A stretch of 64,000 nt of DNA from Candidatus Gottesmanbacteria bacterium (GTDB taxonomy: Bacteria; Patescibacteriota; Microgenomatia; UBA10105; UBA927), in assembly GCA_963714095.1 (NCBI GenBank), contig OY970230.1, positions 198,206 through 262,205 of the forward strand, written 5' to 3'. Position 1 is the stretch's first letter; every line of letters starts with the position of its first letter. Made by a program: the position numbers and the translations under genes. Under the pieces are notes generated by a model. It did no database searches, was not told the origin of the DNA, and saw nothing but the letters and a program-made list of their open reading frames with translations. Shown here piece after piece: positions 10,791 to 36,577 of this stretch.

Positions 10791-12236
10791 TTACTTTGCC
10801 GCAGCAGGTGTCGCTTCTTTTGGCTTTGTTAAATCAATGATTGCAAATGTATCGTTCCGTACTAATACCGTGTACTTTGCGGCAAGGTCGCGGGTCTCAG
10901 TATCGGCATCGGTTGGTGACACGGTGACGTATGCAGTTGCTCCCATGGCGATTTTCTTATCGATATCAAACCCCTCGGGCCAACCCTGACGCTGGGTCTG
11001 ATACAAAAATGTCGTGTCTCCGTTATATGGCGCTATCACTTTGGCATCTTTCGGAAGTATAGCGTCGGCGGCTTTCCCCGCCGCAACAATTTCAGGATGA
11101 TTAATCCAATAATATGTCCGTATCGTAAACCATGAAAAACCGAGCGCCGCGGCTATACTTAGAATCGCGACGATAATCCCGGGAATTTTCATTCTGAACA
11201 GTGATACGAAGCCTTTCGCGGTATAAATCGCGACAACCGGAAGAATAAGAATTTGATAATAATCATGCTGGACGTTGCCTGTGGCAAAAATAATAAAATA
11301 CAGAAGAGTTCCGACGGCTAACCATCGGAAAATCCATCCTTCTTTTTTATCCGCAGATGACGCCAGGCCTAAACCGAACGGGATAAGCCCCCAGAATCCG
11401 AGGATAAGATCTCCCAAACGGGTCGCAAAAAGCCAGTGAAACCATGCGCCTTTGAAGCGGATACCGTTGCCGTTTAATAACCATGTACTTGCCGGAATGC
11501 CTTCCGGAAATTGAAGTATCCAGCGGCGCCATAATAAAAGTGGGATCACCGAAATAGTGCCGTACAGAAGGTATTTAAAAAATGTTTGTTTCGAAATACC
11601 AGATTGCCTAAAAATAATATACGGGATGGGAATAAGAAGAAATACCGCCATGGGTTTAGACAACAATGCCAATGCGCCTGCAATAGCGCTGACAATGACC
11701 CAGCGAAAATTTTTCCTCCGCCCGACCAGCCACAAACTCAACACGGACCAGAATACCATCTGCGGATCCGGCAGTATGGTTCTGCCGTAGTACATACTGT
11801 ACGGCAGTACAGCAAAAAGAAATGCAGCAAACAAACCGGTAACAGGGTCAATATATTGGGCTACCAATAGTCCTAAGACAACCGTTGTTCCGGCGGATGC
11901 CGCGATCGTCACGATTCGGAGCCACACTTCAATCGGAATCTTCGGAATACTCAATTTGCCCAATACCGCAATAACCTGATAGATCGGGAATTCCACCATC
12001 CGCCAGCCCTGCGGGTTATCTTTACCGGATTGAATGTTCGAGAGGTCATCATATCTCGGGTGTAGTGGGTCTATCCCGAACCGCAAAAAATTCCGGGCAA
12101 CAGCAGCGGTATCGGCCTGGCGCCAACTATGCCAGTCCGCGACCGGATACGTAATATGGTATAACCGCACACCACAAGCCGCCACGCCAATACAAAACAA
12201 AAGGGGAATAAAATATTTAGCGATAAATTTTCCCAT
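10791..12236 (-). CDS. GT-C fold membrane glycosyltransferase, GT39/ArnT-like
   Basis: Polytopic, about 11 predicted helices. First loop WHSWRQADTAAVARNF...RYDDLS has the acidic DD motif. YSMYYGRTILPDPQMVF resembles the ArnT/PMT family. Confidence 0.6.
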   Translation of the reverse strand: MGKFIAKYFIPLLFCIGVAACGVRLYHITYPVADWHSWRQADTAAVARNFLRFGIDPLHPRYDDLSNIQSGKDNPQGWRMVEFPIYQVIAVLGKLSIPKIPIEVWLRIVTIAASAGTTVVLGLLVAQYIDPVTGLFAAFLFAVLPYSMYYGRTILPDPQMVFWSVLSLWLVGRRKNFRWVIVSAIAGALALLSKPMAVFLLIPIPYIIFRQSGISKQTFFKYLLYGTISVIPLLLWRRWILQFPEGIPASTWLLNGNGIRFKGAWFHWLFATRLGDLILGFWGLIPFGLGLASSADKKEGWIFRWLAVGTLLYFIIFATGNVQHDYYQILILPVVAIYTAKGFVSLFRMKIPGIIVAILSIAAALGFSWFTIRTYYWINHPEIVAAGKAADAILPKDAKVIAPYNGDTTFLYQTQRQGWPEGFDIDKKIAMGATAYVTVSPTDADTETRDLAAKYTVLVRNDTFAIIDLTKPKEATPAAAK

Positions 12237-12239
12237 ACA

Positions 12240-15233
12240 TTATTTTTCGACTTTCATAAGCTGTTTCAACTGATAGTTTTCGAAAATAAATCTCTCCGCT
12301 GCAAACCCTACTTGTACTGGCGTGCTATATGCGGCTTCAGGCGTTGAAACGTTTGTCGTCGTATACCCATATGCATTCAACCGGAAAATATGCCACAAAG
12401 GATCCGCTAACCCTGTCGGGAAAATCCACGCGCGCCCGTACCTGATTGGCGTATTGATAAATATGAAACTGGTATATTGCCGAAGCGGGAAAAATTGCTT
12501 ACTTAAAGCAAGAAGTGTATTCTGGGAAACGGAACTTGCTTTTTTCCAATCAGTACTCAAACGCCCGATTTCCGACACATTCCATACGATAAGTCCTGCG
12601 ATTGCGGCAACGACAACGAATTTCACGGCGGCCTGCCGTGAGCGTTTCCACCATACAGATATCCCCGTACCCAGTGCCACAATAAAAAATCCGCTCGCGG
12701 CAAACACGTACCGTTCACTCATGTTTCCCAACCCGATAAATGCCAAAAGTGCAACGAAGCCGCATAATGCCCAGAAAAACACTGCGCGGTACGCGGCAAC
12801 GCGGCGCCAAACTTTCCATACGCATGCGGCAACGCCACCGATAAGCAATAACCCAGTCCCCACGGCAATCATGCGATGAATCCGCAGATACTCCCGCAGT
12901 ATTCCCCAGGATTCAATGACGCGGGTTCCGAAAAAGGTTGAGACGACATAGCCGACGGTGTTTCCGATAACGTTAAACGGCAACGTCGAGAGTTTGTAGC
13001 CATAATCTCCTGATGGAGGCACAGCACCCGAAGCAGTCCTGACAATCCAATACAGCGGTATTGCTATCAAAGGTAAGAACGTTGTCCAGTGGCGTTTACC
13101 CAGTATTACCCACGCAACGAGACAGTAAATAAGAGGCGCGACGATCATCCCATCATATGAGAGCATAGCGGACACGAGTAAAAGGAGTGACGCACAATAT
13201 ACTACCCATTTACCCCATGTAGGGCGCCGTCCGTACATCACCAAAAGAACGATACTGCCGAACAAACTGGCTGCAGAAAGTAAACTGCTCTGCCCTGAAA
13301 TCCAAAAAACATTTTCGTTGTGTATGGCAAGTGAAGTAAAGAGCAAGGCAAAAACCAGCGCTACCCAACGTTTGACGTCCGTCAGAACCAGCAGAAGATA
13401 CACAAAATACGCGCTTACGGCCAAAAGCAGGTACGACAAGAAGTGATACCCTTCGGGCTTCAGCCAAAACACCGCATACAGGACAAAATACCAAAACTTC
13501 GGTATCGGACGATAAAAAAATCCCTGGGCATTCGTAAAGTACGAAAGCAAACCCGAGAACGGCGTACTGGCTGCCCACCGCAGCCAGGTAAAATCATCCG
13601 CGACGAAATAGTTAGAAATGGAAGAACCGAAAAGCACAATGGCTGCCAGAAATAAATACATGGCATATGCGATATCATGCGTTAATGCGCGCCACATCAG
13701 TCTCATATAATCCGTAAACCGAAATTCAACCGTCGTAAGGAGTGCAAGCGCGACTCCAAGGAGTAACCATAACGTAAAGGCCACCTTCGACGCTTCAAAC
13801 ACGTCAATAAGAATCCCGTTAAATATTAAACCCGTGAGACCTCCGAATACGCCGACAACAAACGCCTTCTGATATCCGACGAGCGTTTCTTTCCGCCTGA
13901 AAAATATAACATAGGCGGCAAGAAGTATCCCTAAAAACGCAACAGTTCCCAATATGCCGGTTTCACCCAGCATCCTGACATAATCGCCGTCGGATGCCAC
14001 TGATAGCGTCGAATAGCCGCTCCCCAACAGGATATTCCGTTTGAAAGCGGTCATTGCTAGAGGCCACTCCCCCTGCAGACGCGTCGTGATGGAAATGTCA
14101 TAAACGAGCGCCTTCTGGATGAGGAAGCTTCCGGAAACCGTAGCGATTTCTCCCGTTCCGCTTTCGAGACTCACGCTGGTGTAAGAAATCGTCTTTACCT
14201 GGCTCGAAGCCGAAGCAGGCGCCTGCGACGCAGGCAAACCGATATATTCACTTCCTGTCGGCAAATTTTCCACAGCCGGAGATGCAGACTGCTGAACAAC
14301 CGCAGTTGTCCCTTCGAGGGACGCAAGTGTCCCGACCGGTTTACCGGTAGACAAATCCACAATGACGTCATTATATCTGAATGTTTTATAAAACCGATCC
14401 GATGCACCATTAAAAAAATTCAGCAGGAAAAAACTGAAGAGTATAACCGGAATGATAAACCATTTCTTTTTATACCAAAAAAGCATCACGCTTATCGCGA
14501 CAAGATACACGAGAAACGACGTCCGTGATTGTGTGAGAAACAGCATGACGAGCGATCCGACGGACACCATGAAAAATATAATTTTCTGCCACAGTTTATT
14601 GGCCGCAAATACAAACGCGGTAAGAATCGGAACGGTGAAAACGACAAATGCAGCAAGATCATAATGTCCTCCAAAGGTTGAAGGGATGCGCGCCGTAGGC
14701 GGAAGACGAAGCGGTATTCCCTTTGCGAACTGCTCGTTCATCGTCAAAAATGCCGGCCAGCCGAAAAATTTTTCACCAAGTCCGTATACGATAATGCCTA
14801 CTGTTGTTCCCACAAGCGTCCAGATGACCGCCGTAACCAACGACTTCTTCCTGGCAACGACGTCAAATGCTATAAAAAACAGCATCATGTATTCTATCCG
14901 CCGGAGCCAATGCAGCAAAACAAGATGGGGGAAATACCCGACAAGCTTTGGACCGATAAAAATCATGGAAAAGACAGCCGAAATAAGGCCGACGCCCCAA
15001 AAAACAAGAATCGGCCATGTAAGCGGCGTTTTCGGAATATGACGCTGCTGTAGGCGCAGCAGAACATACACACCAACTGCAGCCGCAACAAAAAAATCTT
15101 CCAGGCGTATATAAACAAACGTCCGGATAACATTAATAAGCGGCAACTTCGGATAGAGCGGAATAAACGCCAAAAAAAACAATATCGTCAGTCCGCCGAT
15201 GTTACTGGTTAACCAATGCAAGGCCTTCTTCAT
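12240..15233 (-). CDS. large membrane protein: O-antigen ligase/polymerase-like (Wzy_C) N-half fused to GT-C-like C-half
   Basis: N-half has about 12 TM with LFLTQSRTSFLVYLVAISVMLFW, the O-antigen ligase SR motif. C-half has an additional multi-TM domain starting near FVADDFTWLRWAA (DD loop motif as in GT-C enzymes). 997 aa. Confidence 0.5.
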   Translation of the reverse strand: MKKALHWLTSNIGGLTILFFLAFIPLYPKLPLINVIRTFVYIRLEDFFVAAAVGVYVLLRLQQRHIPKTPLTWPILVFWGVGLISAVFSMIFIGPKLVGYFPHLVLLHWLRRIEYMMLFFIAFDVVARKKSLVTAVIWTLVGTTVGIIVYGLGEKFFGWPAFLTMNEQFAKGIPLRLPPTARIPSTFGGHYDLAAFVVFTVPILTAFVFAANKLWQKIIFFMVSVGSLVMLFLTQSRTSFLVYLVAISVMLFWYKKKWFIIPVILFSFFLLNFFNGASDRFYKTFRYNDVIVDLSTGKPVGTLASLEGTTAVVQQSASPAVENLPTGSEYIGLPASQAPASASSQVKTISYTSVSLESGTGEIATVSGSFLIQKALVYDISITTRLQGEWPLAMTAFKRNILLGSGYSTLSVASDGDYVRMLGETGILGTVAFLGILLAAYVIFFRRKETLVGYQKAFVVGVFGGLTGLIFNGILIDVFEASKVAFTLWLLLGVALALLTTVEFRFTDYMRLMWRALTHDIAYAMYLFLAAIVLFGSSISNYFVADDFTWLRWAASTPFSGLLSYFTNAQGFFYRPIPKFWYFVLYAVFWLKPEGYHFLSYLLLAVSAYFVYLLLVLTDVKRWVALVFALLFTSLAIHNENVFWISGQSSLLSAASLFGSIVLLVMYGRRPTWGKWVVYCASLLLLVSAMLSYDGMIVAPLIYCLVAWVILGKRHWTTFLPLIAIPLYWIVRTASGAVPPSGDYGYKLSTLPFNVIGNTVGYVVSTFFGTRVIESWGILREYLRIHRMIAVGTGLLLIGGVAACVWKVWRRVAAYRAVFFWALCGFVALLAFIGLGNMSERYVFAASGFFIVALGTGISVWWKRSRQAAVKFVVVAAIAGLIVWNVSEIGRLSTDWKKASSVSQNTLLALSKQFFPLRQYTSFIFINTPIRYGRAWIFPTGLADPLWHIFRLNAYGYTTTNVSTPEAAYSTPVQVGFAAERFIFENYQLKQLMKVEK

Positions 15234-16071
15234 ATATTGTGACCAAATCCTGCTTTCCGAGGATTTTACCGATACTAATTGAAACGGTCGCCTTAACCGT
15301 CAACATAAATTTTAACACAGATACCTCCTGCGGTGTTTTGTGCTTCCGATAAAAATACAGAAGCCCGCGGAATATATTTGCCACTGGCGCCCGCTTATTG
15401 CCGCTGGAAGCGGCACCGGTATGAATAAAGCGCGCGTCAGGAGTAAAAAAGACGGAATATCCTTTTCGAGCCGCACGATAGAGAAATTCTATCTCATCCA
15501 TATACATAAATATCCCCTGATCGAATAACCCCACATCATAAAAAGAGTCCCTAGTGCCGAGTAAACATGCTCCTGACACCCAACCAACACGCCTCGTATG
15601 GTCCGGCGAATACCGGGTTATCGATATCTTATCTCCGCGGCAAAACAACATGAGAAATATATACCAAAGGGAAAACTCGGGCCCGCAGGACGGCTGAAGC
15701 GATCCATCCTCGTTGTAGAGTTTTCCTCCGACGAAAGATTTAGGATGTGCCAGAGCAAATTCATATAATTTTTCAAAAGCACCATTGAGCGCATCGATAT
15801 CGGAATTGAGCATAAGAACATAGGTCCCCTTCGCAATATGAAGACCCATGTTATTGGCGGTACCATAACCTACATTTTCCTTATTGAGTATTTTTATTAC
15901 CTGAGGAAATTGTGTATTCAACATCGCAACAGAACCGTCACGGGACGCATTATCGACAACAATGATTTCATATGTCAACTTGGAATGTTTAAGAGTCTCA
16001 ACGATTGACCGCAGACACCGCCCCGTCAAGTGTTTAGTGTTAAAACTGGGGATAATAATTGATAGATCCAT
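15202..16071 (-). CDS. glycosyltransferase family 2
   Basis: LSIIIPSFNTKHLTGRCLRSI ... IIVVDNASRDGS. Confidence 0.8.
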   Translation of the reverse strand: MDLSIIIPSFNTKHLTGRCLRSIVETLKHSKLTYEIIVVDNASRDGSVAMLNTQFPQVIKILNKENVGYGTANNMGLHIAKGTYVLMLNSDIDALNGAFEKLYEFALAHPKSFVGGKLYNEDGSLQPSCGPEFSLWYIFLMLFCRGDKISITRYSPDHTRRVGWVSGACLLGTRDSFYDVGLFDQGIFMYMDEIEFLYRAARKGYSVFFTPDARFIHTGAASSGNKRAPVANIFRGLLYFYRKHKTPQEVSVLKFMLTVKATVSISIGKILGKQDLVTIYEEGLALVNQ

Positions 16072-16074
16072 ACG

Positions 16075-16638: not shown

Positions 16639-17768
16639 ACTTTGCCTCCCACTTTTTCCAATACCTCCAGTGTCTGTTGTGCCGCTTTTTCCCATGTAAA
16701 TTTTTTCACCTGTGCAAGTCCCGCGTCCACACGCTGCCGCCCTTGTATCAGGTTTCTCTGCCGTACTGCCGTAAGAAGCCCGGCAGCGATACTTTCTGCA
16801 CTACCCGCGTCCACATAAATCCCTGCCCTGCCAGCTATCTCAGGAAGACTGGAAACGTTCGAAACGACTACTGGGCATTTATACGCCATCGCCTCCAGAA
16901 CCGGAAGCCCAAACCCTTCGTACAGGCTCGGGAGAGCAAAACAGAGCGCATGTTTGTAAAAAGACGGAAGTTCACCATCAGGCACAAAATCCAAAAATTT
17001 TACGCTCTGAATGACTCCGAATTTTTTCGGAGCGGCAAGGATATCCTCATACAGCCAACCCTTTTTCCCGATGATGACAAGCTGAAGATCGGAGAACTTC
17101 TGCTTATTGGTTCCGATAAACCGTGCAAACGCCTCGATGAGCTTCACATAATTTTTTCTTGGCTGAATCGTGCCTACAGATAGGATAAAATTCCTGCTCA
17201 TATCGTATTTTTTTGTCAACGTTTCAATTGGAACAGAGGAAGTCGTTTTTTTATCCATAGTGAAACCGGGATACATCACAAAAACCCTATCCCCGGATAC
17301 GTGATATTGCCTAATTATAGCATTTTTGCTGAACTCGCTTATCGTCAGTATCCTTGCCGCATGTGCGACTCCATACCCTGTCCATTGCTTCAGCTGATAC
17401 AGATCCTTCGGTTTAAACATTTCGGGATACAACAGGTACGACAAATCCATAATCGCCATCACCCTGGGAACGCGTACAAAACGGGGTATATAGTGCGTCG
17501 GAGAAAACATAACATCAAGTGCAGGCTCCTCTTTCCGAATCGCCAGAGGCAATCCCACCAACGTCCATAATTTCGACGGTCTGCATACGCGATACTGCCA
17601 GTACCTCGTTTCTTTCGGCATATCATTTTGCGCAGACCCGGGCAAAAACACAGTTACGTTGTGCCCAGCCATGAGCGGATAAAGATGCACAAGAATTTCG
17701 TACGCGTACCGGCCGATACCCACGCGGTTAACGACATTTGCTTCATACCCGTCGATTCCTATATTCAT
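16635..17768 (-). CDS. glycosyltransferase family 4
   Basis: MNIGIDGYEANVVNRVGIGRYAYEIL N-domain and EGFGLPVLEAMAYKCPVVVSNVSSLPE C-domain. Confidence 0.8.
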   Translation of the reverse strand: MNIGIDGYEANVVNRVGIGRYAYEILVHLYPLMAGHNVTVFLPGSAQNDMPKETRYWQYRVCRPSKLWTLVGLPLAIRKEEPALDVMFSPTHYIPRFVRVPRVMAIMDLSYLLYPEMFKPKDLYQLKQWTGYGVAHAARILTISEFSKNAIIRQYHVSGDRVFVMYPGFTMDKKTTSSVPIETLTKKYDMSRNFILSVGTIQPRKNYVKLIEAFARFIGTNKQKFSDLQLVIIGKKGWLYEDILAAPKKFGVIQSVKFLDFVPDGELPSFYKHALCFALPSLYEGFGLPVLEAMAYKCPVVVSNVSSLPEIAGRAGIYVDAGSAESIAAGLLTAVRQRNLIQGRQRVDAGLAQVKKFTWEKAAQQTLEVLEKVGGKV

Positions 17769-18325
17769 AATGAAAACCCCGGATATATAACGTGGAGTTT
17801 GCTTTCAGGAATGTGCAACAGCTCCATAATGTCTTTTTTTGTCGATTCACTGTCACAAAAAATGGCTGCGCATTCTTTTTTCACCCACCTGAGCCTCCGT
17901 GCATGCGTAGCCACAATACCCATATCCATTTCCTTTAGAAAACGTATCGTCGAAAGATCATGAACGGTTGTCACACCTTTTGCATGGAATAGCGGCGGCT
18001 GCGTCCAATCGCTGCTCCAAAAAACATCCAACGGCCCGGTAAATGTTTCAACAGGCAGAACATGAAAACTGTTCCACATGATGTCCAAGAGTTTCGGCGG
18101 AAGAGGAATCCTCTTTAATTCTACATTTGGATTTATCTTCCTCATTTCCTGAAAAAACTCTTCAAATATATGTTTTTTCCGGAGTGATGCGCCGAATAAA
18201 ACATATGTATTTCCCTTATCAATTTTTAAAAGCGTTTTAACCATGCGCCGGACATAGGCTGCCACTCCGGTGCCCTCGTAGACTATCTGGCTGATATCTA
18301 TTCCGATACGCATATACCCTATCAT
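17765..18325 (-). CDS. stand-alone GT4 N-terminal domain protein (truncated or orphan)
   Basis: RIGIDISQIVYEGTGVAAYVRRMV N-domain signature. Terminates at ...KLHVIYPGFSL, the N-domain end. Its stop overlaps the start of the next complete GT4 (ATGA). Confidence 0.5.
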   Translation of the reverse strand: MIGYMRIGIDISQIVYEGTGVAAYVRRMVKTLLKIDKGNTYVLFGASLRKKHIFEEFFQEMRKINPNVELKRIPLPPKLLDIMWNSFHVLPVETFTGPLDVFWSSDWTQPPLFHAKGVTTVHDLSTIRFLKEMDMGIVATHARRLRWVKKECAAIFCDSESTKKDIMELLHIPESKLHVIYPGFSL

Positions 18326-18326
18326 C

Positions 18327-19940
18327 TCATTTTTCAGGTAAATAATACAAAAACTCCTGTGCTTTTGCCCGTTGCTGTTGTGTTAACCCTGATACTAAAG
18401 ACTTTTTTATATAGAGACATGTAGGTTTTCCTTCCGAATACCACTGTGCATAGAAAGGTAAAAATTGGGACGGAAAACGCGGATGAACCGGTGCGTCCGG
18501 AGTGCAAAAATCATACAGGATATCCGGCGGATCATGGGTAAACATATCGATCATGGCGTTATAATATTTATCTTTAAATCGGATCGGGTAGTAAAACGAA
18601 TATGAATAAGAAGAACTCCTGCCTGATGCGACATACAAAAACTCATCCGCTCCGTTGGTAAAAAGCGTTTGCTGAGGCACAGTTACTGCTTTAATAACTT
18701 CACTTATCTGCAAATAATTCCCGTAATTGGTGATAAACTCCGTCTGCTCGTCAACGTGCTGGTAGATGAAAGATCGCGGAGAAAATAACACGTAGGCAAC
18801 TAAGCACCCTATGATAATAAAAAATATGTATCGTTTACGGACTACCCAAAGCATTTCATAAAAAAGATACAACGACGAAAACAGGAAAATACCATACCAG
18901 TTTATTTCGTGAAACGCTTCAAAATATTGCAAACCCGGAATTGCAGGCCGGAGATTTGCCAAACCCAAAACAATAAAAAGGAATCCCAATACCCACATGT
19001 TTTTCTTTGTTTTCAGCCACAGAAAAACAGAAAAACCAAAAACGACAGTCAAACATATCAATTGAATACGAAAATCATTCCACCTTCCGGCAATAAGAAT
19101 ATAGAGGGGGTAAAAAAATGACTTAACGACGCCGGTACCGAAAAAATGACCCGCTTGCAGCTCGCTGGGTAATCCTGTCTGTAAATTCAGGGTAATAACA
19201 TTATAAACAAAATCACGGACAGGAAACAATATGAATAATCCCGCGGTTAAAATAAAAAATATAGCGAGGGCGATTTTACCGACATTTTTGAAAAACACAG
19301 GGCGGATAATAATGCCAAAAAGAAATATCGCTACCAACACGTACGGTTCTCGCATAAACACAACAAACCATAGACACAGGGCTGTTAAAACGATCTCCCA
19401 ATGGAACACAGGTTTCTTGCGGAGCGTATGCAATCCCAAACCGGTTAGGTACACGAGGGGATATACGATAAAACCTTCAGCCAGAAACCTATCACCAAAA
19501 ACATAAAATTTTGAAAATTCATATAAGAGTGTATATGCAAATCCGGTTATTCCGAACCTCCAACAGATAAAAACGTCAAAAACAAATCCAAACACTAATA
19601 AAAACTGCCGGTGTTGCAATAACAATGCATATATATTAACCGGATGCCCATAGTGCTGAATAACCAAACTAAGATATGCCATAAGCGGCATGTGGTTAAA
19701 GTAAATTTGTGAATACAGTTGCTTGCCCTTCCCAATAAAATATCCGCCAACATAGTTAAAACAGTCATCGAAACAACCAAACGCATTAATTTTCGGAATA
19801 TAGATCTTATAAAGAAAATAATACACAGGGATAAGAAGAATAAACCAGATCGTCAGGCGTACTAACGGATGTGATAAAACGGCGTTCCATGCAAAAGCAT
19901 TATTCTTTTTTTGCATAAGGATCAGGGGAATAACCATCAC
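18327..19940 (-). CDS. polytopic membrane protein, GT-C-like (hypothetical)
   Basis: About 12 hydrophobic helices. Early loop CFDDCFNY acidic motif. The 5' end overlaps galE, so the true start may be an internal Met. Confidence 0.35.
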   Translation of the reverse strand: MMVIPLILMQKKNNAFAWNAVLSHPLVRLTIWFILLIPVYYFLYKIYIPKINAFGCFDDCFNYVGGYFIGKGKQLYSQIYFNHMPLMAYLSLVIQHYGHPVNIYALLLQHRQFLLVFGFVFDVFICWRFGITGFAYTLLYEFSKFYVFGDRFLAEGFIVYPLVYLTGLGLHTLRKKPVFHWEIVLTALCLWFVVFMREPYVLVAIFLFGIIIRPVFFKNVGKIALAIFFILTAGLFILFPVRDFVYNVITLNLQTGLPSELQAGHFFGTGVVKSFFYPLYILIAGRWNDFRIQLICLTVVFGFSVFLWLKTKKNMWVLGFLFIVLGLANLRPAIPGLQYFEAFHEINWYGIFLFSSLYLFYEMLWVVRKRYIFFIIIGCLVAYVLFSPRSFIYQHVDEQTEFITNYGNYLQISEVIKAVTVPQQTLFTNGADEFLYVASGRSSSYSYSFYYPIRFKDKYYNAMIDMFTHDPPDILYDFCTPDAPVHPRFPSQFLPFYAQWYSEGKPTCLYIKKSLVSGLTQQQRAKAQEFLYYLPEK

Positions 19941-20910: not shown

Positions 20911-20914
20911 TCCT

Positions 20915-21136
20915 CTATTTTACTTTATTGGGCCGCAGGAGGGAAATCAGAAGGAAAGAGAGCGTGAACGCAGCACCATACCAAGTCAGACGCTCGGCGG
21001 TAAAAAAAGTCCACGTAGCAAATAACGGAATCGCCAAAACCCAGCTTGCGAGGCCGGCAAACAGAAATAACCGGGGCTTTCTAATTAAAAGTAATACGAC
21101 AAATACCAGAAAAAATCCTATATCCTGCGGCTTCAT
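20915..21136 (-). CDS. small two-helix membrane protein (hypothetical)
   Basis: 73 aa, two hydrophobic segments. 4-nt coupling overlap with the downstream UXS gene. No recognisable motif. Confidence 0.3.
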   Translation of the reverse strand: MKPQDIGFFLVFVVLLLIRKPRLFLFAGLASWVLAIPLFATWTFFTAERLTWYGAAFTLSFLLISLLRPNKVK

Positions 21137-22077: not shown

Positions 22078-22081
22078 GCAT

Positions 22082-22792: not shown

Positions 22793-22813
22793 ATAAGTAT
22801 TTAATATTCACGG

Positions 22814-25096: not shown

Positions 25097-25120
25097 AATG
25101 AATTATTTTAAAACATACCC

Positions 25121-26980
25121 TTATTTCGCATCTATACGAAGTATCAGGTATTTCGTGTCTTCATAGACTGTTTCGTATGTTGCGGTAAGCAATTTTTCGT
25201 CAACGGCATACGGAAAATCGTTTTTCTTCCATCTCGGAATAAGGATATATGAGATATTACTTGCTTTGGCAGCCGAGATATCACCCTGGTACACCCTAGA
25301 AACAACAGGCGACCGGTCTACCCAGCCGACATTCCCGTAAAAACCGAAATAATTGGTCCTCCCTGCTAAAACTACCGGGTCTATGATGTCCGAATATGAC
25401 ACAAAAATCGCGTCTCGTTGTGTGTTTTTTTTAATCCAGGAAATAACCGCGGCTGTATCCTTATCTACCAGCGGATACGCGAACTCATTCTTTACGACCA
25501 TAAGGTCGATAGCACCTGATACCGTAAGGGTAAATAAAAGAGCGAGTGCAAGCAGTCTAAATCCGACTCTTTTCCGCCGCAAAAGCCAAACAATTCCGCA
25601 TGCGGCACTGATATTGACACCGATGATGAGAACTGACAGAAATTTCTGGTCAAATCCATGCTTCCCGTACGCCGCATACAGGCATAGAGCAGCAAAAAAC
25701 AGAAAGAACGGAGCGATGACACCTCTTCGTTGTTTAGGAATTACGAAAAAACCCGCAACTGCAACGAACGGCAATATGCCGAGATTTTCCCACAAATACT
25801 GAAAAATGTTCCATTGCGGTAACCGGCCCGTTCCCTGTAATGATAACCCCAGTGACCATACGCTTTTCCATACGGAAACAAACGGCAAAACTGACATCAC
25901 AACCGTTCCTAGTGCGCACACGGAAAACGTAACCGACTCACGCCATCGTCTCCTCAAAAGCATAAGAAGAACAATGATTGCTCCGACAAGTGCACTGACA
26001 GGTATGTTCCAAAAAAACATACCGCCGGTTAATACACCCAATACGGCGCCGTTGAAATTCGTTAACCGTTTATCATCGGACAGCTTGAGGAGACACATAA
26101 TCAGGAAAAGCCCGAGCGCAATACTAAAAGCCAGATGCCGCTGATTCACATAATTATTGAGCGTCATAAAAACGGAAATAACGGATCCGTCATACGGTCC
26201 GGCAAACGGGTACGCGGGAAGTCTCCAGGTGGTATGAAAAAATGCAAAGTTAAAACCTTTTTGGGGTATGAAATACCAAAACGTCAGCGTACTGTGCGTA
26301 ATTGTCAACAATACCGCAACCCATCCGGCGAGTTTCGTTTGTTTCAGAAATACTTGCGGCAAAAAATAAACAATTATGAGAAGTGACGCAAATGAAACTA
26401 TGCTGGGAATATTCATAGCCCATACGATCGGAACACCGAAATATTCCCAGAGAGCGACGAAAAAATAGAAAAGGAAATGATAAAAAAATGGCAGTCCAGA
26501 CTGAAACGGAGACATAAACGGAATATTATTTCCCCATGAAAATGACCGCACGATCCCGAGTGAATGCCCGAAATCAAACACGTTATTACTTCCGACAAAT
26601 AATGTTCCGCCTGTTCCTGCACGAAACGTTTTCATCATCAGCCACGAACTGAAAAGAACTGAAAAAAGGACGATAAGTACGTCACCAAATGTCAGGACAG
26701 ACGTTGAATTCGATTTTTTTATTTTCACAAAACGGCTTAAGATGAATACTACTGCGATAAAGAGAACCGTGCTCCAAAGAATCGATTCTCCGGTTTGCCT
26801 CAGTAAACTTGCCAATATATAGGTTGTCGGTACTCCGATACCGATGCCGACTATCATGGAACCGACAAACGCAAGCAATACAGGCATTCCGGAAAACCAT
26901 TTTTTTACGACGATCGAACCCAAAAACGTTAATGAAATAATGTAGAGAGCAAGAATGAGCAAATGGATACCCTGTTGCAT
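25121..26980 (-). CDS. polytopic membrane protein with C-terminal soluble domain (GT-C-like candidate)
   Basis: About 14 hydrophobic helices followed by an ~130-aa hydrophilic C-terminus. Confidence 0.35.
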   Translation of the reverse strand: MQQGIHLLILALYIISLTFLGSIVVKKWFSGMPVLLAFVGSMIVGIGIGVPTTYILASLLRQTGESILWSTVLFIAVVFILSRFVKIKKSNSTSVLTFGDVLIVLFSVLFSSWLMMKTFRAGTGGTLFVGSNNVFDFGHSLGIVRSFSWGNNIPFMSPFQSGLPFFYHFLFYFFVALWEYFGVPIVWAMNIPSIVSFASLLIIVYFLPQVFLKQTKLAGWVAVLLTITHSTLTFWYFIPQKGFNFAFFHTTWRLPAYPFAGPYDGSVISVFMTLNNYVNQRHLAFSIALGLFLIMCLLKLSDDKRLTNFNGAVLGVLTGGMFFWNIPVSALVGAIIVLLMLLRRRWRESVTFSVCALGTVVMSVLPFVSVWKSVWSLGLSLQGTGRLPQWNIFQYLWENLGILPFVAVAGFFVIPKQRRGVIAPFFLFFAALCLYAAYGKHGFDQKFLSVLIIGVNISAACGIVWLLRRKRVGFRLLALALLFTLTVSGAIDLMVVKNEFAYPLVDKDTAAVISWIKKNTQRDAIFVSYSDIIDPVVLAGRTNYFGFYGNVGWVDRSPVVSRVYQGDISAAKASNISYILIPRWKKNDFPYAVDEKLLTATYETVYEDTKYLILRIDAK

Positions 26981-26983
26981 ATG

Positions 26984-28726
26984 TTATTTCCGGCGTTTCA
27001 GTATAAGTATTACTGCTGAACTGACGAGCGTAATACTACTGATTCCGACACCTATATTTGCCAGTATTTGTTGTCTGGCGACGATCGGAGGAATTGTACT
27101 AATCATAGTAAACTGAGTATTTTTAAAAACCGCTACACCGGTAAAATCAGTGTCCTCAATAAGTGTCGTATTTTTAAGAGCATCTATTAGGAGGCTGCGT
27201 TCGTCGGGATTAAAACGGTAATCCGTAAGGAAAAACTGCTTCGTGAGATCAGTCGGCACGATCACATATCCGACTCCTGAATCTGCCAGACTCTTCATAA
27301 ATTCAGGCGTTTTAATCATGGCGATAACGGCAGATATTGAAGCGCCATTAAACAGTTCATTGGATGTCAGCAATGGGTGAACCTCTGACGTATATGCAAA
27401 CGGGTCGTTTTGAGGTATCCATAACGTGCGCGATGGTTTTGCATCCCCGACCAGTACATCTTTCAGGCGGACGTAATCGGCGGAAATTCGCGGTGGCAGG
27501 AAATTGCCCCGCATTTGGCCTAAAAAAACCGGCCGGATGGTAAAACACCAATACAACAGAAAGATGGTCCATATAAGTATTTCATTTATATGAATTTTTT
27601 CCGTGAGCCGCTGAAGTGTATACGGGATTAAAACGGAATATCCAAGAGCAGTAAAAACATATACTTTCGTGGGATCGCGGAACATGACAAATCCGGGTAT
27701 ATGGATAAACATCCACTGAAAAATTTCTCCGAACGGATCATTGACGCCTTTTGCAAGAAACACACCCAGAAGCGCGAGCACACCGAAAAAAAATATTTTT
27801 CTTGACCGATCCGCGGCTTTTTTTTCAACGAACAAAAACGCGCAAAATGCCAGGAGAGGCAAAATGAGAAATTCCGGCTGCAGGAAATAGACTTTTCCGA
27901 ATAAATTTTCCGGCCAATTCGGATGAAGAAGTGAAAGCGCATGGGAAAAATCCGCAGAGCTTAAAAATTTGAGCATGCCGGGACTCGTAAATTGATCTCC
28001 GAGTGATTGTATCCCACCTCCGCCAAACACCGTCGGCAAAATCCAAAAAGCGTGCGAACAAAGTCCGATGATGCCGGGGACAATAAACGTCGAAATAATT
28101 ATCGTGCCGATATATTTACTTCCGTACAGATACCAATGGAGAAAAAAATATAAACCTATAGCGATAACTGCAAGATATGCCAATCGTATATCGAGTACTA
28201 TTAACAACGCAAAATATAAACCGTTTCCAATAGACGTTCGTATATTCTGTTGTACGGGGGTATCAATACCCTCCGTAAACTTCAGAAACACCAAGGGCAG
28301 AAATGCAAATGCCCAGGCAACACCCAACTGACCTCCGCTGAAAAGAAGGAGAAAATATGTATTTGTGGTATAAATTACGGAACCCAACACGGCAAACAAG
28401 GGTCTATTAACACATCTTCTGACCAGCCGATATGATGAATACACTGCCAGAACAAAAGCGATGATCCAAAATAGTTTGTCTATGAAAAACCATGAAAATC
28501 CGAGCAGTGATAGTATTTTCAACACGAAACGGTACGGATATTCAAGCCACAAACGGGGCAACAGACTTTGCCCGAAACCTTTTGTCGTATCCCAAACGGG
28601 CGGCAACCATGAAAACTGCCGGATTTGTTCTTCAAACAAAAACGGCGCATCACCGGAAGCAAAAAATATCATACGCGATGAATCCTTTGTTGATCTTTTC
28701 GCACTGTCAGAATAATAGCAACGCAA
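26984..28726 (-). CDS. polytopic membrane protein, paralog of 28669..31629
   Basis: Shares the motif HIPGFVMFRDPTKVYVFTAL with HVPGFAIFRSSFYKFAPLV in the next protein. Multi-TM. Confidence 0.4.
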   Translation of the reverse strand: MRCYYSDSAKRSTKDSSRMIFFASGDAPFLFEEQIRQFSWLPPVWDTTKGFGQSLLPRLWLEYPYRFVLKILSLLGFSWFFIDKLFWIIAFVLAVYSSYRLVRRCVNRPLFAVLGSVIYTTNTYFLLLFSGGQLGVAWAFAFLPLVFLKFTEGIDTPVQQNIRTSIGNGLYFALLIVLDIRLAYLAVIAIGLYFFLHWYLYGSKYIGTIIISTFIVPGIIGLCSHAFWILPTVFGGGGIQSLGDQFTSPGMLKFLSSADFSHALSLLHPNWPENLFGKVYFLQPEFLILPLLAFCAFLFVEKKAADRSRKIFFFGVLALLGVFLAKGVNDPFGEIFQWMFIHIPGFVMFRDPTKVYVFTALGYSVLIPYTLQRLTEKIHINEILIWTIFLLYWCFTIRPVFLGQMRGNFLPPRISADYVRLKDVLVGDAKPSRTLWIPQNDPFAYTSEVHPLLTSNELFNGASISAVIAMIKTPEFMKSLADSGVGYVIVPTDLTKQFFLTDYRFNPDERSLLIDALKNTTLIEDTDFTGVAVFKNTQFTMISTIPPIVARQQILANIGVGISSITLVSSAVILILKRRK

Positions 28727-31629
28727 ACGAAACCCGCAATGGTTATCACGGCCCCGATATAAAATATGCTCTGCGGTTGATAATAGATGGTTGCATCATA
28801 TGTTCCCTTTGTATCTATAATCCAACCGTTGGCAAAACCGTTTGTCAGGACATGCCGGCTTTCCTGTAAGGTCTCCCCGTTGATTTTTATCTTCCACCGC
28901 GCGTCGAAGCCGGCGTTGTAGAGTAACAAAAATGCTTTTTGGGCATTATTGATGTGCACTGTGACATTTGTAGGATTCTTTTGAATAAATGTAACAGCCG
29001 GCGAAGAGATGTTTATGGATTCATGATTCCGGTGGGCATAAACGGCGGGTTGCTGCCTGGGAACATTATCGGCCGCAGCAGTAAGTTCAACTGTGTGAAA
29101 GCCTGCGGTCAAATAGACATTTTTTGGATTGGTAACTAATGATCCGTCTAATTTGAGAGTCTGGGAGGAGACATCATAAACGAGCAGCTGGTAATTGGCA
29201 TCAGTATCCACGGTCAACCCATACCGGTATTCCTGTTGTCCGTCTCCCATCCAAACCAAAGGTTGTACGCGGACAATCATTGTCTGGAAATACGACTCAA
29301 ATTCCGGATCCTTCCCTAATTCTCTTTGCTGGGCCAGAAAATAAGCCAAAATACGGTTTGCATAGACCGTTTTATCGCGTCCGGAAAGATTGTCCATAAT
29401 CTTCACAGCATCGTTCATCGCCAATTCGTACCGCGCTTGTGCCGATTGTAACCGGGCAATATTATTTTCCGTGCGGAATTCCATATACTCTCCCAGTCTG
29501 GTCTGTGCGTGGGCAATAAGTACGTCGATCTTTGCAGAGCCGGTCTTCGCGTTATTATTTTCACGCTCTTCTTTCCATGTTATGTATGGATATGCCACGG
29601 AACCGGGGAGTATGCGCGGCCGGAGTATCGTGATTCCTGATACATATTTATTCCATTCTGCCGTTTTGCAAAAATAACATTCACCACCGTACACAATAGA
29701 TGTAGCCAGGGAAGTAGCCGGACCCGCTCCCGTTCCATCCCCGATTTCGACGACCGGCACCGCAGGTTCAACTCCTACGATATCCGAACCGCTCGCGGAT
29801 AAATCCCCCTGAAAATCTGTCACCGCACCTGCGGCTTGGACAATCGGAGGTGCGGATCCCGGCAAATCCCATAACTGCCACTCCCCTTTGTCAAACGTTT
29901 TCGTTAAACCGAAAGCGGTAGCAATAGGCACAAAATCAGGGGCAGGTTGAGGCTTGGAAAACTGAACATCGCGCCGGACCAAAATAGAACGGACTCGAAG
30001 TATGGATGCCAGATTGAAAAATGAACGCCTATCATGACTATCCAGTGCCTCATACATACGGTTCACCAGCTCGCCACCTGTACCGGTGGCGTCATTGGCA
30101 ATAATCGGAACGGTCGAGATTAATCTCGGAAGCACGTCGAGACTGTAAAACCCCCACCGATACGTATCAATCGGCTGATTAATAAACCCCGCGTCAAGCG
30201 GCGGATAGATGAGGATATTCCCTGAATACGGGTCTGCGCTATTCATAACTTTTGCCGTGTCTGTTACATAAGGCGGAACCGAGACGCGCGTGGTAAAATC
30301 TTTGGAGAATTGAAATATGTCCGATACAAAAAACGGATAGTGATACACGAATAAACCCGTAATGAAACCCGCGGCAATAAGAGCCTGCACCAGTCTTCCT
30401 TTTATGGATTGCAGAACGGAGTTCAGCATAAAACCGGAAAGAATAATCATCGGAATCCACACTAACGGCGCAAATTTATAAAAGCTTGAACGGAAAATTG
30501 CAAATCCCGGCACGTGACGCATCGCCCAAATAAATGCCACACCGAACGGGGGATGCGATCCAGCGGCCAGTACCAACCCTATGAGCAAAAGTATGTAGAG
30601 ACATACAAGGAACCAGATCTGACGGATATTTTTTCTTTTCCATAACAGGAATATTGAACCGACAAAAACGATAATTGCAGGAATAAAACTTGCAATAATC
30701 AAAAGATGGTTGGTAAGAAATTGATGCGCAAACGGATTATAGACATTGTCATACCAATCGGGGATTCCCTGTAAACGCAGAAGATTTATAATGCTCGCAT
30801 TTTTGCTGATCACACCTTCCCATGCAATGAGCCCCTCAATTCCCCCATAAGCTCCTACCGTCTGACTGTATGTTCCGAGATATAGACTGAGCTGCGGTAA
30901 AACCCAATAGGCATTGACAGTCAAAAACGAAACGGACATGCCGCACGCGATGAAACATAACCGCTTCAGCACCCCCCGTCCGTCTTTGCGGATTGCAATG
31001 ATAGAAAAAATAATAAATGAACATACCAGCCCGACAAGCGTTGCCCCATACAACGGCGGAGACCCTCCCCCGTTCAGAATAAAATAGAGAAGCCCGAAGG
31101 CAATTGCATGCCTGACAATATTCTTCTTACGGATAATTGTCCGGTACAGAAGAGCAACTGCTATAGGGAGCGCGGCAAACAGTGAAAATTCTGCCCGCTC
31201 CGCAATAAACCACCCCTGTAAAATATAAAAATTGTACATCGCAAATGCCGATGACCACAGACGTAAAAATCTGTATTGCTTCTGCGGAAATACGAGATAT
31301 ATACCTAGCCACATGCCGAAACCGATAAGAAAAAACCACAATACGAGAGCGATTCGTTGACCCCAAAGGATCGATCCTGTAAGTACTGAAAATAGCGTTT
31401 CCGGAAACTGCGTCACAAGAAATGCCTTGTATAACGCCCAATCTATCCCGAAGTTCACAATCGGATTCCACGAATAAAACAAATTTTTTAGATTTACCAC
31501 TGGCATCAGCCGGAATCCACTATCATGCCCGAGAAGCATCTGACTACCACTCAACCAATGAAGAGGTAAAAGAGATGTAATGAATATAAACAGGAGTTCA
31601 ATAAAATATGCACGTCGAATATATTTCAT
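28669..31629 (-). CDS. very large polytopic membrane protein with extracytoplasmic C-terminal domain (GT-C-like candidate)
   Basis: 986 aa. N-terminal ~450 aa multi-TM with early GHDSGF acidic loop. Large hydrophilic middle/C region. Final TM near the C-terminus. Confidence 0.4.
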   Translation of the reverse strand: MKYIRRAYFIELLFIFITSLLPLHWLSGSQMLLGHDSGFRLMPVVNLKNLFYSWNPIVNFGIDWALYKAFLVTQFPETLFSVLTGSILWGQRIALVLWFFLIGFGMWLGIYLVFPQKQYRFLRLWSSAFAMYNFYILQGWFIAERAEFSLFAALPIAVALLYRTIIRKKNIVRHAIAFGLLYFILNGGGSPPLYGATLVGLVCSFIIFSIIAIRKDGRGVLKRLCFIACGMSVSFLTVNAYWVLPQLSLYLGTYSQTVGAYGGIEGLIAWEGVISKNASIINLLRLQGIPDWYDNVYNPFAHQFLTNHLLIIASFIPAIIVFVGSIFLLWKRKNIRQIWFLVCLYILLLIGLVLAAGSHPPFGVAFIWAMRHVPGFAIFRSSFYKFAPLVWIPMIILSGFMLNSVLQSIKGRLVQALIAAGFITGLFVYHYPFFVSDIFQFSKDFTTRVSVPPYVTDTAKVMNSADPYSGNILIYPPLDAGFINQPIDTYRWGFYSLDVLPRLISTVPIIANDATGTGGELVNRMYEALDSHDRRSFFNLASILRVRSILVRRDVQFSKPQPAPDFVPIATAFGLTKTFDKGEWQLWDLPGSAPPIVQAAGAVTDFQGDLSASGSDIVGVEPAVPVVEIGDGTGAGPATSLATSIVYGGECYFCKTAEWNKYVSGITILRPRILPGSVAYPYITWKEERENNNAKTGSAKIDVLIAHAQTRLGEYMEFRTENNIARLQSAQARYELAMNDAVKIMDNLSGRDKTVYANRILAYFLAQQRELGKDPEFESYFQTMIVRVQPLVWMGDGQQEYRYGLTVDTDANYQLLVYDVSSQTLKLDGSLVTNPKNVYLTAGFHTVELTAAADNVPRQQPAVYAHRNHESINISSPAVTFIQKNPTNVTVHINNAQKAFLLLYNAGFDARWKIKINGETLQESRHVLTNGFANGWIIDTKGTYDATIYYQPQSIFYIGAVITIAGFVCVAIILTVRKDQQRIHRV

Positions 31630-33356
31630 ATCTTTTCTCGTTTCTTAAAAATTTCAATAGTTGATCCATCGATGGGAACGAAAACGTCACGAAAACGATC
31701 GTATCCCAACGATTCTATCACTGTGGCATTAACGCCCCCAGGTACTTTATCCAACACATAATCGGCCTGATGTAACTCCAACTTTTTGGGCAATACGGCA
31801 TCTTTCGGCACTTCTGTGTCCATAACCATTATATCTCGCTGCTCGTACGTCAGAATGGACAGGAACGCATTATCAAGCGGCTCAAAGGCAAACAGCTTAA
31901 CAACGTCTGGCTTTCCGGGCCCTTTCCAATCATTACGAATTGTTGACACCATCACATCCGCATTAACAAATTCTTTATTCGGCGGCCACACTATGGGCGT
32001 CAGATATATACGGCGCGGATGATGAATAAATTCCGGGAGAACAATATCCTTTAAACCCTGTTTCCCCATCGGACCAATTGCCCAAAACGCACCGAAATAA
32101 CTGCAAACGGCAACCACCACGAAACAAACCGTGAAAAATCTTCTGACCGCCGAATGTTGGATGCCCGCAAGGGGTAATACGGCCAAAAAAGCCATATAGG
32201 GATACAAAGGCACGATGAACCGGTCTTCCTTCCACACCGCCATACCAGTAAAAAACAGATACGGCACCGCGACACCCAGAAGGGGCACCCCATATCGTTT
32301 CCATTTCCATAGTGCAATAAGCACACCGACCGCAAACGGAATAAAAATCCAAACCGTATTCTGGGACATAATGTTGAAATAATACATGACGGATCTTGTT
32401 GATAACGTATTTGCCATATCGGGGCTGCGGTATTGTGCCACCCACTCTGCTCCGTACGTCTGGTTGTTCTTAACGTATACGTCAAAAAAAATGTGGGCGT
32501 TGGGAATGTAATATGCAAAAATCGGTACAACTACTCCGATAATCAAAAATAAGACAATGTTAACGATAATGTTCTTTCTGACTTTCTTTTCCCTCACAGC
32601 CTGCCCGACAGACATAATAAATACCGCCAGCGCCGGCCCCAACACAAATACCGGTCCAACCCAACGCGTCAGTGATGCCAGTGCCAGAAAAACTGCCGCA
32701 ACGAGAGTTTCTTTTGTTTTTACGAAACTATTTGTTTTGAGAAGAAATACGACCGACCATATACAGAACGTGCTCACCGCTGTTTCCGTATATGTAAAAT
32801 GTGAATAAAACAATACGTTTCCTAAACTTGCAAATACTATTGCGACAAGAAGTGATTTTTTTTGAGTAAAATACGTTCTGGCTATTACATACGTCCCGAT
32901 AATCGCCGCAAGGTAAAAAAGTCCGTTCAGAAGCAATGCCATCTTGTACGTATACGCTGTTCCGAAAATCAGTAATAATAGTGCTATAACAATACTGAAT
33001 ACCGGCTGCCGGTATCCGCTCGCCGCAAGAATACTCCCCCACGAAACTGACAATGGATGACGGAATTGATCATACAAATTCACTGCCAGAGAAAGATATT
33101 GATGTTCGTCCCATTGGGGATATTGATGAGATCTATAGATATAAAAAGCAAATGAAAGATAAACAAAAACAAGAAGACTTATACTTATCAGACTAAAAAG
33201 TTTATGGTGCGATTGAAGCTGACCCTTGTTGTTTTTTTGTAGCTCTCTTTCATAAAATAACCTCATATTGTTTCGTTGGTTCGTATGCAATACTATGTAC
33301 CTATTATATCCTGACTTTACCGAAAATCTTGATAATAAATAATAACACAGTTGCAA
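31626..33356 (-). CDS. GT-C fold membrane glycosyltransferase, GT39/ArnT-like
   Basis: Early loop WDEHQYLSLAVNLYD. FYSHFTYTETAVSTFCIW resembles the PMT/ArnT signature region. Multi-TM N-half and soluble C-half. Confidence 0.45.
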   Translation of the reverse strand: MQLCYYLLSRFSVKSGYNRYIVLHTNQRNNMRLFYERELQKNNKGQLQSHHKLFSLISISLLVFVYLSFAFYIYRSHQYPQWDEHQYLSLAVNLYDQFRHPLSVSWGSILAASGYRQPVFSIVIALLLLIFGTAYTYKMALLLNGLFYLAAIIGTYVIARTYFTQKKSLLVAIVFASLGNVLFYSHFTYTETAVSTFCIWSVVFLLKTNSFVKTKETLVAAVFLALASLTRWVGPVFVLGPALAVFIMSVGQAVREKKVRKNIIVNIVLFLIIGVVVPIFAYYIPNAHIFFDVYVKNNQTYGAEWVAQYRSPDMANTLSTRSVMYYFNIMSQNTVWIFIPFAVGVLIALWKWKRYGVPLLGVAVPYLFFTGMAVWKEDRFIVPLYPYMAFLAVLPLAGIQHSAVRRFFTVCFVVVAVCSYFGAFWAIGPMGKQGLKDIVLPEFIHHPRRIYLTPIVWPPNKEFVNADVMVSTIRNDWKGPGKPDVVKLFAFEPLDNAFLSILTYEQRDIMVMDTEVPKDAVLPKKLELHQADYVLDKVPGGVNATVIESLGYDRFRDVFVPIDGSTIEIFKKREKI

Positions 33357-33381
33357 AAATTTAACTAAACCGCAAAGCCTT

Positions 33382-35612: not shown

Positions 35613-35768
35613 AATAAAATTATAAATTCTCTTTTTTATGATCCTCGTAGCGTTGAGAATAATATTTCGCTATTATCGAACATATTTTAAAAATGAATGT
35701 ACGATATCTAAATAATTTGGTTATTTACAATAATATTAACTTCATCTCTGATATTTGTAGGGAAAATA
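35613..35768. promoter_or_regulatory. AT-rich intergenic region upstream of the minus-strand gene 34587..35612
   Basis: 156-nt non-coding gap, strongly AT-rich. Position consistent with a promoter; no motif verified. Confidence 0.25.
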
Positions 35769-36455: not shown

Positions 36456-36577
36456 AGTTAAAATAGAATATTACGCAATCACCTTGATCACTTGAATATA
36501 AAATCACCTAATTTTAATTTCGTTTTATTCCAATATCTATCGTAATAGTTTTGCATATATGACAGCTATGATAAGAT
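36456..36577. promoter_or_regulatory. divergent promoter region between 35769..36455 (-) and 36578..37765 (+)
   Basis: 122-nt AT-rich gap between divergently oriented genes. Confidence 0.3.

Follow-up and report, generated by a model that had tools for sequence, protein, structure and literature searches.

Membrane glycosyltransferases of the GT-C fold carry out extracytoplasmic glycosylation, such as N- and O-glycosylation and lipid A modification, and include the ethambutol targets of mycobacteria, and most bacteria encode a handful of them. The window analysed here, i.e., a 64,000-nucleotide (64-kb) stretch of a Candidatus Gottesmanbacteria bacterium (contig OY970230.1, positions 198,206 to 262,205), carries eleven open reading frames (ORFs) whose products an earlier note had read as an unusual expansion of GT-C-like proteins with an acidic motif shortly after the first transmembrane helix (TM1). 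All eleven lie on the minus strand, which carries nearly all genes of the window, and together they total 21.1 kb, or 33% of its length; they are named below by their first coordinate (Table 1). That these are large polytopic membrane proteins was borne out by the ORF coordinates and by a Kyte-Doolittle scan, which found 8-13 hydrophobic segments per single-domain protein and 23 in the protein of 997 amino acids (aa). These numbers, as well as the helix maps of two AlphaFold2 (AF2) models, agree with the polytopic core of 7-13 membrane helices that characterises the GT-C superfamily, the fold definition being taken from PMC11127046.

The assignment to the GT-C superfamily found support for all eleven proteins, at strengths that differed with the type of evidence (own Pfam matches, Pfam matches of homologues, profiles and structure models). 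Two proteins are above a Pfam threshold (10791 for PMT_2 and 62073 for PTPS_related), three fall just under the PMT_2 threshold (31626, 44994 and 58873; PF13231, gathering cut-off of 26.1 bits), and four are linked by profile or through their homologues to PMT_2 or to the AftD-like DUF3367 (40021, the C-half of 12240, 28669 and 26984). The last two, 18327 and 25121, belong to two families that are absent from Pfam and NCBIfam, and were assigned from structure models.

Table 1. Coordinates of the eleven GT-C candidates (first twelve lines, the fusion taking two) and of other features of the window (HMM, hidden Markov model; GT2, glycosyltransferase family 2; E, expectation value).
Feature	Position	Strand	Evidence or remark
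GT-C candidate of the PMT_2 family, 481 aa	10791..12236	-	PMT_2 35.5 bits (cut-off 26.1), PMT 24.4 bits (cut-off 22.7)
997-aa fusion, C-half (aa 452-997): PMT_2-like GT-C domain with DDFTW	12240..13880	-	40021-family HMM
997-aa fusion, N-half (aa 1-451): Wzy_C / O-antigen polymerase-ligase-like domain	13881..15233	-	Sub-threshold Wzy_C match
GT-C-fold protein, 537 aa, FGCFDDCF just after TM1	18327..19940	-	AF2 model
GT-C-fold protein, 619 aa, three extra N-terminal helices and small C-terminal outer domain	25121..26980	-	AF2 model
AftD/MmpA-like paralogue of the upstream gene, 562 aa	26984..28672	-	Lacks TM1; starts just before the conserved G-D
AftD-like (DUF3367) GT-C candidate, 986 aa	28669..31629	-	Membrane domain of ~450 aa with GHDSGF, outer domain of ~500 aa, C-terminal anchor helix
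PMT_2-like GT-C candidate, 576 aa (called as 546 aa), WDEHQY after TM1	31626..33356	-	PMT_2 25.2 bits, E 2.2e-5, below cut-off, profile positions 4-156 of 160
Divergent PMT_2-type GT-C candidate, 557 aa, QQDEW after TM1	40021..41694	-	Via homologues
PMT_2-like GT-C candidate, 667 aa, C-terminal outer domain of ~250 aa	44994..46997	-	PMT_2 22.1 bits, E 2e-4, below cut-off, profile positions 2-152 of 160
PMT_2-like GT-C candidate, 487 aa	58873..60336	-	PMT_2 20.5 bits, E 6e-4, below cut-off, profile positions 7-158 of 160
PTPS_related/YfhO-type GT-C candidate, 522 aa	62073..63641	-	PTPS_related 30.3 bits (cut-off 26.4), YfhO 24.8 bits (cut-off 28.5)
GT2, candidate polyprenyl-phosphate sugar synthase, 236 aa	22082..22792	-	Best PDB relative P. 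furiosus Dol-P-Man synthase 5mlz (E 8e-24), then ArnC
GT2, candidate polyprenyl-phosphate sugar synthase, 263 aa	56824..57615	-	Best NCBIfam matches ArnC, PgfS and PpgS, all below cut-offs
GT2, candidate polyprenyl-phosphate sugar synthase, 228 aa	60353..61039	-	Best PDB relative 5mlz (E 3e-22), then ArnC and GtrB 5ekp
DUF4012 protein, 664 aa, single-pass	2946-4940		Start of the locus, beside the phosphoglycosyl transferase
Initiating phosphoglycosyl transferase	4996..5634	-	Pfam Bac_transf 202 bits
Membrane protein, 760 aa	22814..25096	-	Signal/TM1, outer domain of ~440 aa, ~6 helices, C-terminal domain
Membrane acyltransferase, likely glycan O-acylase	33382..34593	+	Pfam Acyl_transf_3 98.4 bits
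Wzx-type flippase	57602..58858	-	Pfam Polysacc_synt_3 37.2 bits, Polysacc_synt 28.8 bits
3' end of a further gene	63638..64000	-	Runs past the window end; product of 380 aa

By profile similarity, the proteins 10791, 31626, 40021, 44994 and 58873 and the C-half of 12240 make up a PMT_2-like group. The PMT match of 10791 is partial (profile positions 81-196 of 245). No MIR domain was matched in any of the eleven proteins by the Pfam scan, and the full PMT domain accompanied by MIR domains that distinguishes Pmt (GT39) was not found. The 40021 protein has no Pfam match of its own and is connected to PMT_2 through a family of 1119 representative clusters, as 26 of 72 homologues match this domain (best E 1.9e-9). 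The HMM of this family matched the C-half of 12240 (36 bits, p 1.6e-13), for which hhalign gave a probability of 94% over 399 columns with the D-D of the fusion aligned with the D-E of the family. The same HMM matched 44994, a gene with a TTG start codon, in the region of its PMT_2 match (p 7e-4), and hhalign placed 58873 with the 40021 family at a probability of 45%. By its matches, 62073 is a PTPS_related/YfhO-like protein, both families being members of the Pfam GT-C clan.

The 12240 gene encodes a fusion of its PMT_2-like domain with an N-terminal half that scored 23.7-23.9 bits with Pfam Wzy_C (PF04932), under the cut-off of 31.7, and gave a weak NCBIfam match to IctB. Because of this score, the N-half is termed Wzy-like and not considered a proven member of the family; its orthologue in contig L011 carries a precomputed PF04932 match with an E of 1e-5 or better. 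The fusion is kept in Microgenomates relatives (L004, L007, L009, L010 and L011), and we know of no described equivalent, although no exhaustive search was made.

The proteins 28669 and 26984 are, as judged from profiles, an AftD/DUF3367-like protein and its paralogue without TM1. The 28669 protein itself does not match PF11847 (DUF3367, AftD family), which is carried by 7 of 48 homologues, and among PDB profile matches AftD (6w98/6wbx) ranks best, with co-linearity at the C-terminal domain but an E of only 0.08. In the order of its parts (membrane domain, then outer domain, then a helix at the C-terminus), the protein matches AftD. Concerning 26984, the ORF listed as 26984-28726 has its true start at M19 (28672), and the encoded protein matched the 28669-family HMM with 43 bits (p 6.7e-16) and the NCBIfam model of MmpA with 36.7 bits, far under the cut-off. 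MmpA was described as partially homologous to the membrane part of AftD (PMC8698533). In all six orthologues of 26984, the N-terminus is conserved and TM1 is absent. The correspondence between the G-D of 26984 and that of 28669 was obtained by inspection and from the orthologue alignment, a MAFFT alignment of the pair having misaligned the N-termini. The two proteins may constitute a two-subunit enzyme. Members of the 26984 family always lie directly downstream of, or overlapping with, a full-length AftD-like gene (in the window and in L004, L006, L007, L009 and L010).

For the families of 18327 and 25121, about 110 and more than 370 members were found, and neither the two proteins nor any of their homologues matched Pfam, NCBIfam or PDB sequences. 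The earlier note had made the presence of a GT-C core in predicted structures a test of its proposal, and this core was found in the AF2 models of both proteins, which resemble solved GT-C enzymes in three dimensions. In the model of 18327, two short helices (57-70 and 86-98) occupy the loop between TM1 (residues 25-53) and the membrane helices that come next, and the FGCFDDCF motif is invariant in the family. In 25121, no acidic residue follows the first helix, and the conserved Asp is D136, within the large loop behind helix 4; the charge pattern suggests three extra N-terminal helices, which would begin with the N-terminus outside. A fold and a candidate catalytic motif can hence be assigned to these families, which are candidates for new CAZy families.

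The nine acidic motifs quoted by the earlier note were all recovered immediately after the first hydrophobic helix, at residues 31-82 or, in the 997-aa protein, at residue 545, where the motif follows the first helix of the C-half. The claim does not hold for 25121, with no acidic residue after its first helix, nor for 26984, with no TM1 at all. An Asp occurs within 20 residues after TM1 in 9 of 10 proteins, compared with 44% for the remaining hydrophobic segments in these proteins (binomial P ~0.004), and the acidic motif by itself is weak evidence, carrying little information as a bare pattern. In 10 of 10 proteins, the segment ahead of the first helix contains one to four Lys or Arg and almost no Asp or Glu, and the following loop is acidic or neutral. 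Because this distribution fits the positive-inside rule, the loop with the motif is placed outside, an orientation that derives from this rule only.

Conservation of the acidic residues among orthologues, the other test set in advance, was observed in the families with deep alignments (18327, 40021 and 28669), in which the acidic residue of the motif is invariant or at least 90% conserved. This is illustrated by D58 and D59 of 18327, which do not vary among 61 homologues, by D40, E41 and W42 of 40021, each kept in at least 90% of 92 homologues, and by G34 and D36 of 28669, invariant in 44 homologues, where H35, S37 and G38 are conserved to at least 90%. For 10791 and 31626, two orthologues and one were available, contig scans having returned 2 related loci in genome contigs and 3 in metagenome contigs. 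All four orthologues of the 12240 C-half carry DDFTW, all six of 26984 the G-D, and the one orthologue of 31626 WDEHQY. The first outer loop of 10791 (residues 24-85) is near-identical in its two orthologues (L010 and L011), which keep D34, D43 and D64, the first two being nearer to TM1 than the quoted RYDDLS. Of this motif, the second Asp (D64) is thus conserved whereas the first (D63) is not kept.

The term expansion, on the other hand, did not hold, as the eleven proteins fall into nine sequence-unrelated groups and are not recent duplicates. Detectable similarity within the set is limited to 26984/28669 and 40021/12240 C-half (blastp, hhalign and family HMMs). In pairwise blastp and phmmer searches, only the former pair was linked (blastp E 3e-8), and a recent paralogous expansion was rejected. 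Comparison of the family profiles of 25121, 18327 and 40021 by hhalign gave no relation either (probability ≤ 8%).

Three small GT2 proteins of the window resemble synthases of polyprenyl-phosphate sugars. The 22082 protein gave NCBIfam matches of the AglJ, PpgS and ArnC type and the 60353 protein matches of the AglJ and Dol-P-hexose transferase type, all under the equivalog cut-offs. The gene at 60353-61039 adjoins the GT-C gene 58873-60336, and that at 22082-22792 lies within the block described below. The association of a GT-C enzyme with a lipid-linked donor is a hallmark of three-component extracytoplasmic glycosylation systems (PMC11127046). As judged from these similarities, the three GT2 proteins probably supply lipid-linked donors, which lends support to polyprenyl-phosphate sugars as donors of the GT-C proteins.

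Part of the gene order is shared with other Microgenomates, since the same block recurs in three of their contigs (L009, L010 and L011). It runs from the AftD-like gene (~990 aa) to the TM1-less paralogue (~550-590 aa), the 25121-family gene (~620 aa) and a short-chain dehydrogenase/reductase (SDR) gene, continues with a 73-aa membrane ORF, a second SDR gene (GalE), the N-half of a glycosyltransferase family 4 (GT4) protein and a GT4 gene, and ends with a hexapeptide acyltransferase, a GT2, the Wzy-GT-C fusion (~1000 aa) and the PMT_2 protein. Its core of five GT-C genes is syntenic in these bacteria, and the 18327 and 22814 families are found in some of the three contigs only. On L002 (729-4790, corresponding to ~63638-67700), the locus continues beyond the window with the 380-aa product, a 162-aa DUF5667-like ORF, a GT2 and a 542-aa PMT_2-like protein (PMT_2 match, E 7e-4). 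The 380-aa product has a precomputed match to PF26314 (MptA_B_family) that was not reproduced by our own Pfam scan. With these two further candidates, the locus would contain at least 13 GT-C candidates in ~68 kb. Weak DUF5667 matches were noted for residues 673-747 of 28669 and for the 162-aa ORF of L002.

Taken together, the results establish which fold two of the proteins have and to which families the others are linked, and they show that the acidic residue is conserved where the alignments are deep and that the five-GT-C core is syntenic. The overall best explanation, which we consider likely, is that the eleven proteins are GT-C-fold membrane glycosyltransferases of an envelope glycan locus. 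Several results weigh against this explanation. Only two of the eleven clear a curated family cut-off on their own and three depend on sub-threshold Pfam matches, while the structure models cover two proteins, 18327 and 25121. Searches of PDB sequences with the profiles of the 25121, 18327, 40021 and 28669 families returned nothing significant, and those with four single proteins gave no significant match. Foldseek comparison of the 18327 model with the PDB was marginal, the top three hits, all of them EmbB (E 0.03) or AftA (E 0.04) entries, having E values of 0.03-0.08 and TM-scores of 0.33-0.40; the 18327 and 25121 families are therefore remote from anything solved. Moreover, no small flippase for polyprenyl-phosphate sugars of the GtrA, GtcA, ArnEF, SMR or MATE type was recognised in the genes and intergenic gaps of the window, where the only flippase candidates are Wzx and the conserved 73-aa membrane ORF, the sole intergenic gap above 200 nucleotides holding a plus-strand secreted ORF and not a flippase. 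Finally, since 26984 lacks TM1, its "first loop" would have to be a translocated N-terminal tail and the protein may be non-catalytic; no transferase activity is known for its nearest named relative, MmpA (PMC8698533).

This last point bears on an alternative according to which some of the eleven have the GT-C fold without transferase activity and serve as scaffolds, lipid-carrier handlers or transport accessories, as MmpA does in corynebacteria or PIG-U/GAB1 in the GPI transamidase. The fold is no proof of activity, as PIG-U, GAB1 and MmpA illustrate. The strongest candidate for a non-catalytic member is the TM1-less 26984, which may be a partner subunit of 28669, as its gene always comes directly after. 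However, all six orthologues of 26984 have preserved the G-D that matches G34 and D36, invariant in the AftD-like family, which argues for a retained active-site loop, and the other ten proteins have a standard TM1 with the N-terminus inside and an acidic outer loop. We hold this alternative to be unlikely. Another rather improbable possibility is that proteins (S-layer proteins, pilins or lipoproteins, for example) are the main targets of the GT-C enzymes, as they are for Pmt, PglB/AglB, PglL or TMEM260, and that no polysaccharide is extended or decorated by them. As for a set of unrelated polytopic transporters or permeases with a post-TM1 acidic residue by chance, it could invoke the frequency of Asp after the other hydrophobic segments (44%) and the lack of sequence similarity between most pairs, but it is largely refuted already and hardly credible.

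The GT-C glycosyltransferase reading is set in a locus rich in genes for glycan synthesis. From gene map and Pfam content, a single glycan-biosynthesis locus fills the window from ~2.9 kb to the right edge, the left edge being occupied by genes for a histidine phosphatase, a glycine-tRNA ligase and RecO (Pfam). The ligase shares at least 90% identity with one of Candidatus Gottesmanbacteria. The window covers the greater part of a single, very large locus for a cell-envelope glycan, at least 61 kb in length, and all named homologues are from Microgenomates, Gottesmanbacteria, Levybacteria or Patescibacteria. In addition to the features of Table 1, the locus contains a mannose-1-phosphate guanylyltransferase-like gene and about nine genes of the GT4 and eight of the GT2 family. 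SDR epimerases/dehydratases number four, one of them a clear GalE (398.8 bits), DegT aminotransferases three, and hexapeptide acyltransferases and methyltransferases two each; a CDP-glucose module, a split transketolase and one GNAT are also present. The G+C content of the right half is 0.36-0.41 (33000-47000 and 52000-60000) compared with 0.45-0.49 in the conserved left half, so that the right half, with the remaining GT-C genes, looks like the variable portion of the locus and may have been exchanged.

Several other arrangements were observed. The region 47721-56807 forms a CDP-hexose module in which genes resembling those for glucose-1-phosphate cytidylyltransferase (272.8 bits) and CDP-glucose 4,6-dehydratase are accompanied by the three DegT aminotransferases, the GNAT and the transketolase split into N and C genes, which suggests the synthesis of an unusual dideoxy, amino or branched sugar. 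One GT4 is split into N-half (8261-8782) and C-half (7786-8271) ORFs, and a lone GT4 N-half of 186 aa lies within 17765-18325, ahead of a full GT4. Since both arrangements recur in L009, L010 and L011, they are real genes and not sequencing frameshifts. The 73-aa hydrophobic ORF (20915-21136) lies between two SDR genes and occupies the same position in these three contigs; its sole match is weak (Lycopene_cyc-like, E 0.013), and a role as small flippase or as accessory subunit is conceivable. The 22814 protein gave no Pfam, NCBIfam or PDB sequence match. It has a 72% identical orthologue in L011 (4193-6463), and in L006 an orthologue (13359-15674) lies directly upstream of an 18327-family gene. 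The gap mentioned above holds the plus-strand ORF 44501-45010, encoding 169 aa with a signal-peptide-like N-terminus.

From the family content of the locus, the following sequence of events is proposed. The phosphoglycosyl transferase and the many cytoplasmic GT2 and GT4 enzymes would build a lipid-linked oligosaccharide, which Wzx would flip over the membrane and which the Wzy-like N-half of 12240 may then polymerise or ligate. Meanwhile, the three small GT2 proteins, given their resemblance to Dol-P-Man synthase, ArnC and GtrB, would load single sugars on polyprenyl phosphate. By analogy with ArnT, PglB and Pmt, the GT-C proteins would use the conserved Asp of the first outer loop to transfer these sugars, on the external side of the membrane, to proteins or to the glycan under construction. 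GT-C activity, donors and acceptors (polysaccharide or protein) are inferred here, as would be a catalytic role for every member of the set.

The presence of eleven such proteins suggests that assembly of the surface glycan takes place in large part outside the cell membrane. In a genome of ~1 Mb, 21 kb devoted to eleven GT-C genes, with a core of five conserved across Microgenomates, indicate a heavy investment in an externally assembled surface glycan by ultra-small, uncultured and probably host-dependent bacteria, for which this glycan is a likely interface with hosts and phages. A more speculative proposal, put forward tentatively and itself doubtful, is that Microgenomates build a conserved, probably essential envelope heteropolysaccharide largely on the external side of the membrane, as an analogue of mycobacterial arabinogalactan in a bacterium with a ~1-Mb genome. 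At least 11-13 GT-C enzymes would take part, including at least two families without a relative in Pfam, NCBIfam or PDB sequences, a fusion coupling polymerisation to side-chain addition, and an AftD-like pair whose TM1-less second member works only with the first.

A search among the papers available on GT-C, ArnT and glycosyltransferases in the Candidate Phyla Radiation (CPR), Patescibacteria and Gottesmanbacteria returned no paper describing GT-C proteins in these groups. One of the closest known systems is the assembly of arabinogalactan and lipoarabinomannan in mycobacteria and corynebacteria, which relies on EmbA/B/C, AftA-D, MptA/B and PimE with decaprenyl-phosphate sugars. Here, in contrast, the organism is a patescibacterium with a genome of ~1 Mb, most proteins are alike at the fold level only, the locus showed no genes for DprE, a UbiA-type phosphoribosyltransferase or arabinose, and Wzx and a Wzy-like domain are also present, with 11-13 GT-C genes in one locus of ~68 kb. 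Three-component systems (GtrA/GtrB/Gtr*, ArnC/ArnEF/ArnT, CsbB/GtcA/YfhO and the GT136 pentofuranose system; PMC11127046) share with the present locus the pairing of a small GT2 synthase with a GT-C protein, and the PTPS_related and YfhO matches of 62073 recall the CsbB/GtcA/YfhO system. In these systems, each modification has a single GT-C and a locus usually holds one to three of them, whereas three synthases stand here against eleven GT-C proteins. The Wzx/Wzy pathways of O-antigen and capsule synthesis, with their Wzy polymerase or WaaL ligase, likewise comprise Bac_transf, Wzx, a Wzy_C-like domain, cytoplasmic GT2 and GT4 enzymes and nucleotide-sugar genes. The present locus differs in having the Wzy_C-like domain fused to a PMT_2-like GT-C in the 997-aa protein. 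As in Pmt (GT39) and ArnT (GT83), whole-profile PMT_2 matches go along with an acidic motif in the first outer loop; differences are the lack of MIR domains and scores around or under the Pfam cut-off, that of 10791 being above. The locus represents a known mechanism of extracytoplasmic glycosylation in an unusual form, with a high density of GT-C genes, new families, a Wzy-GT-C fusion and a TM1-less AftD-like member.

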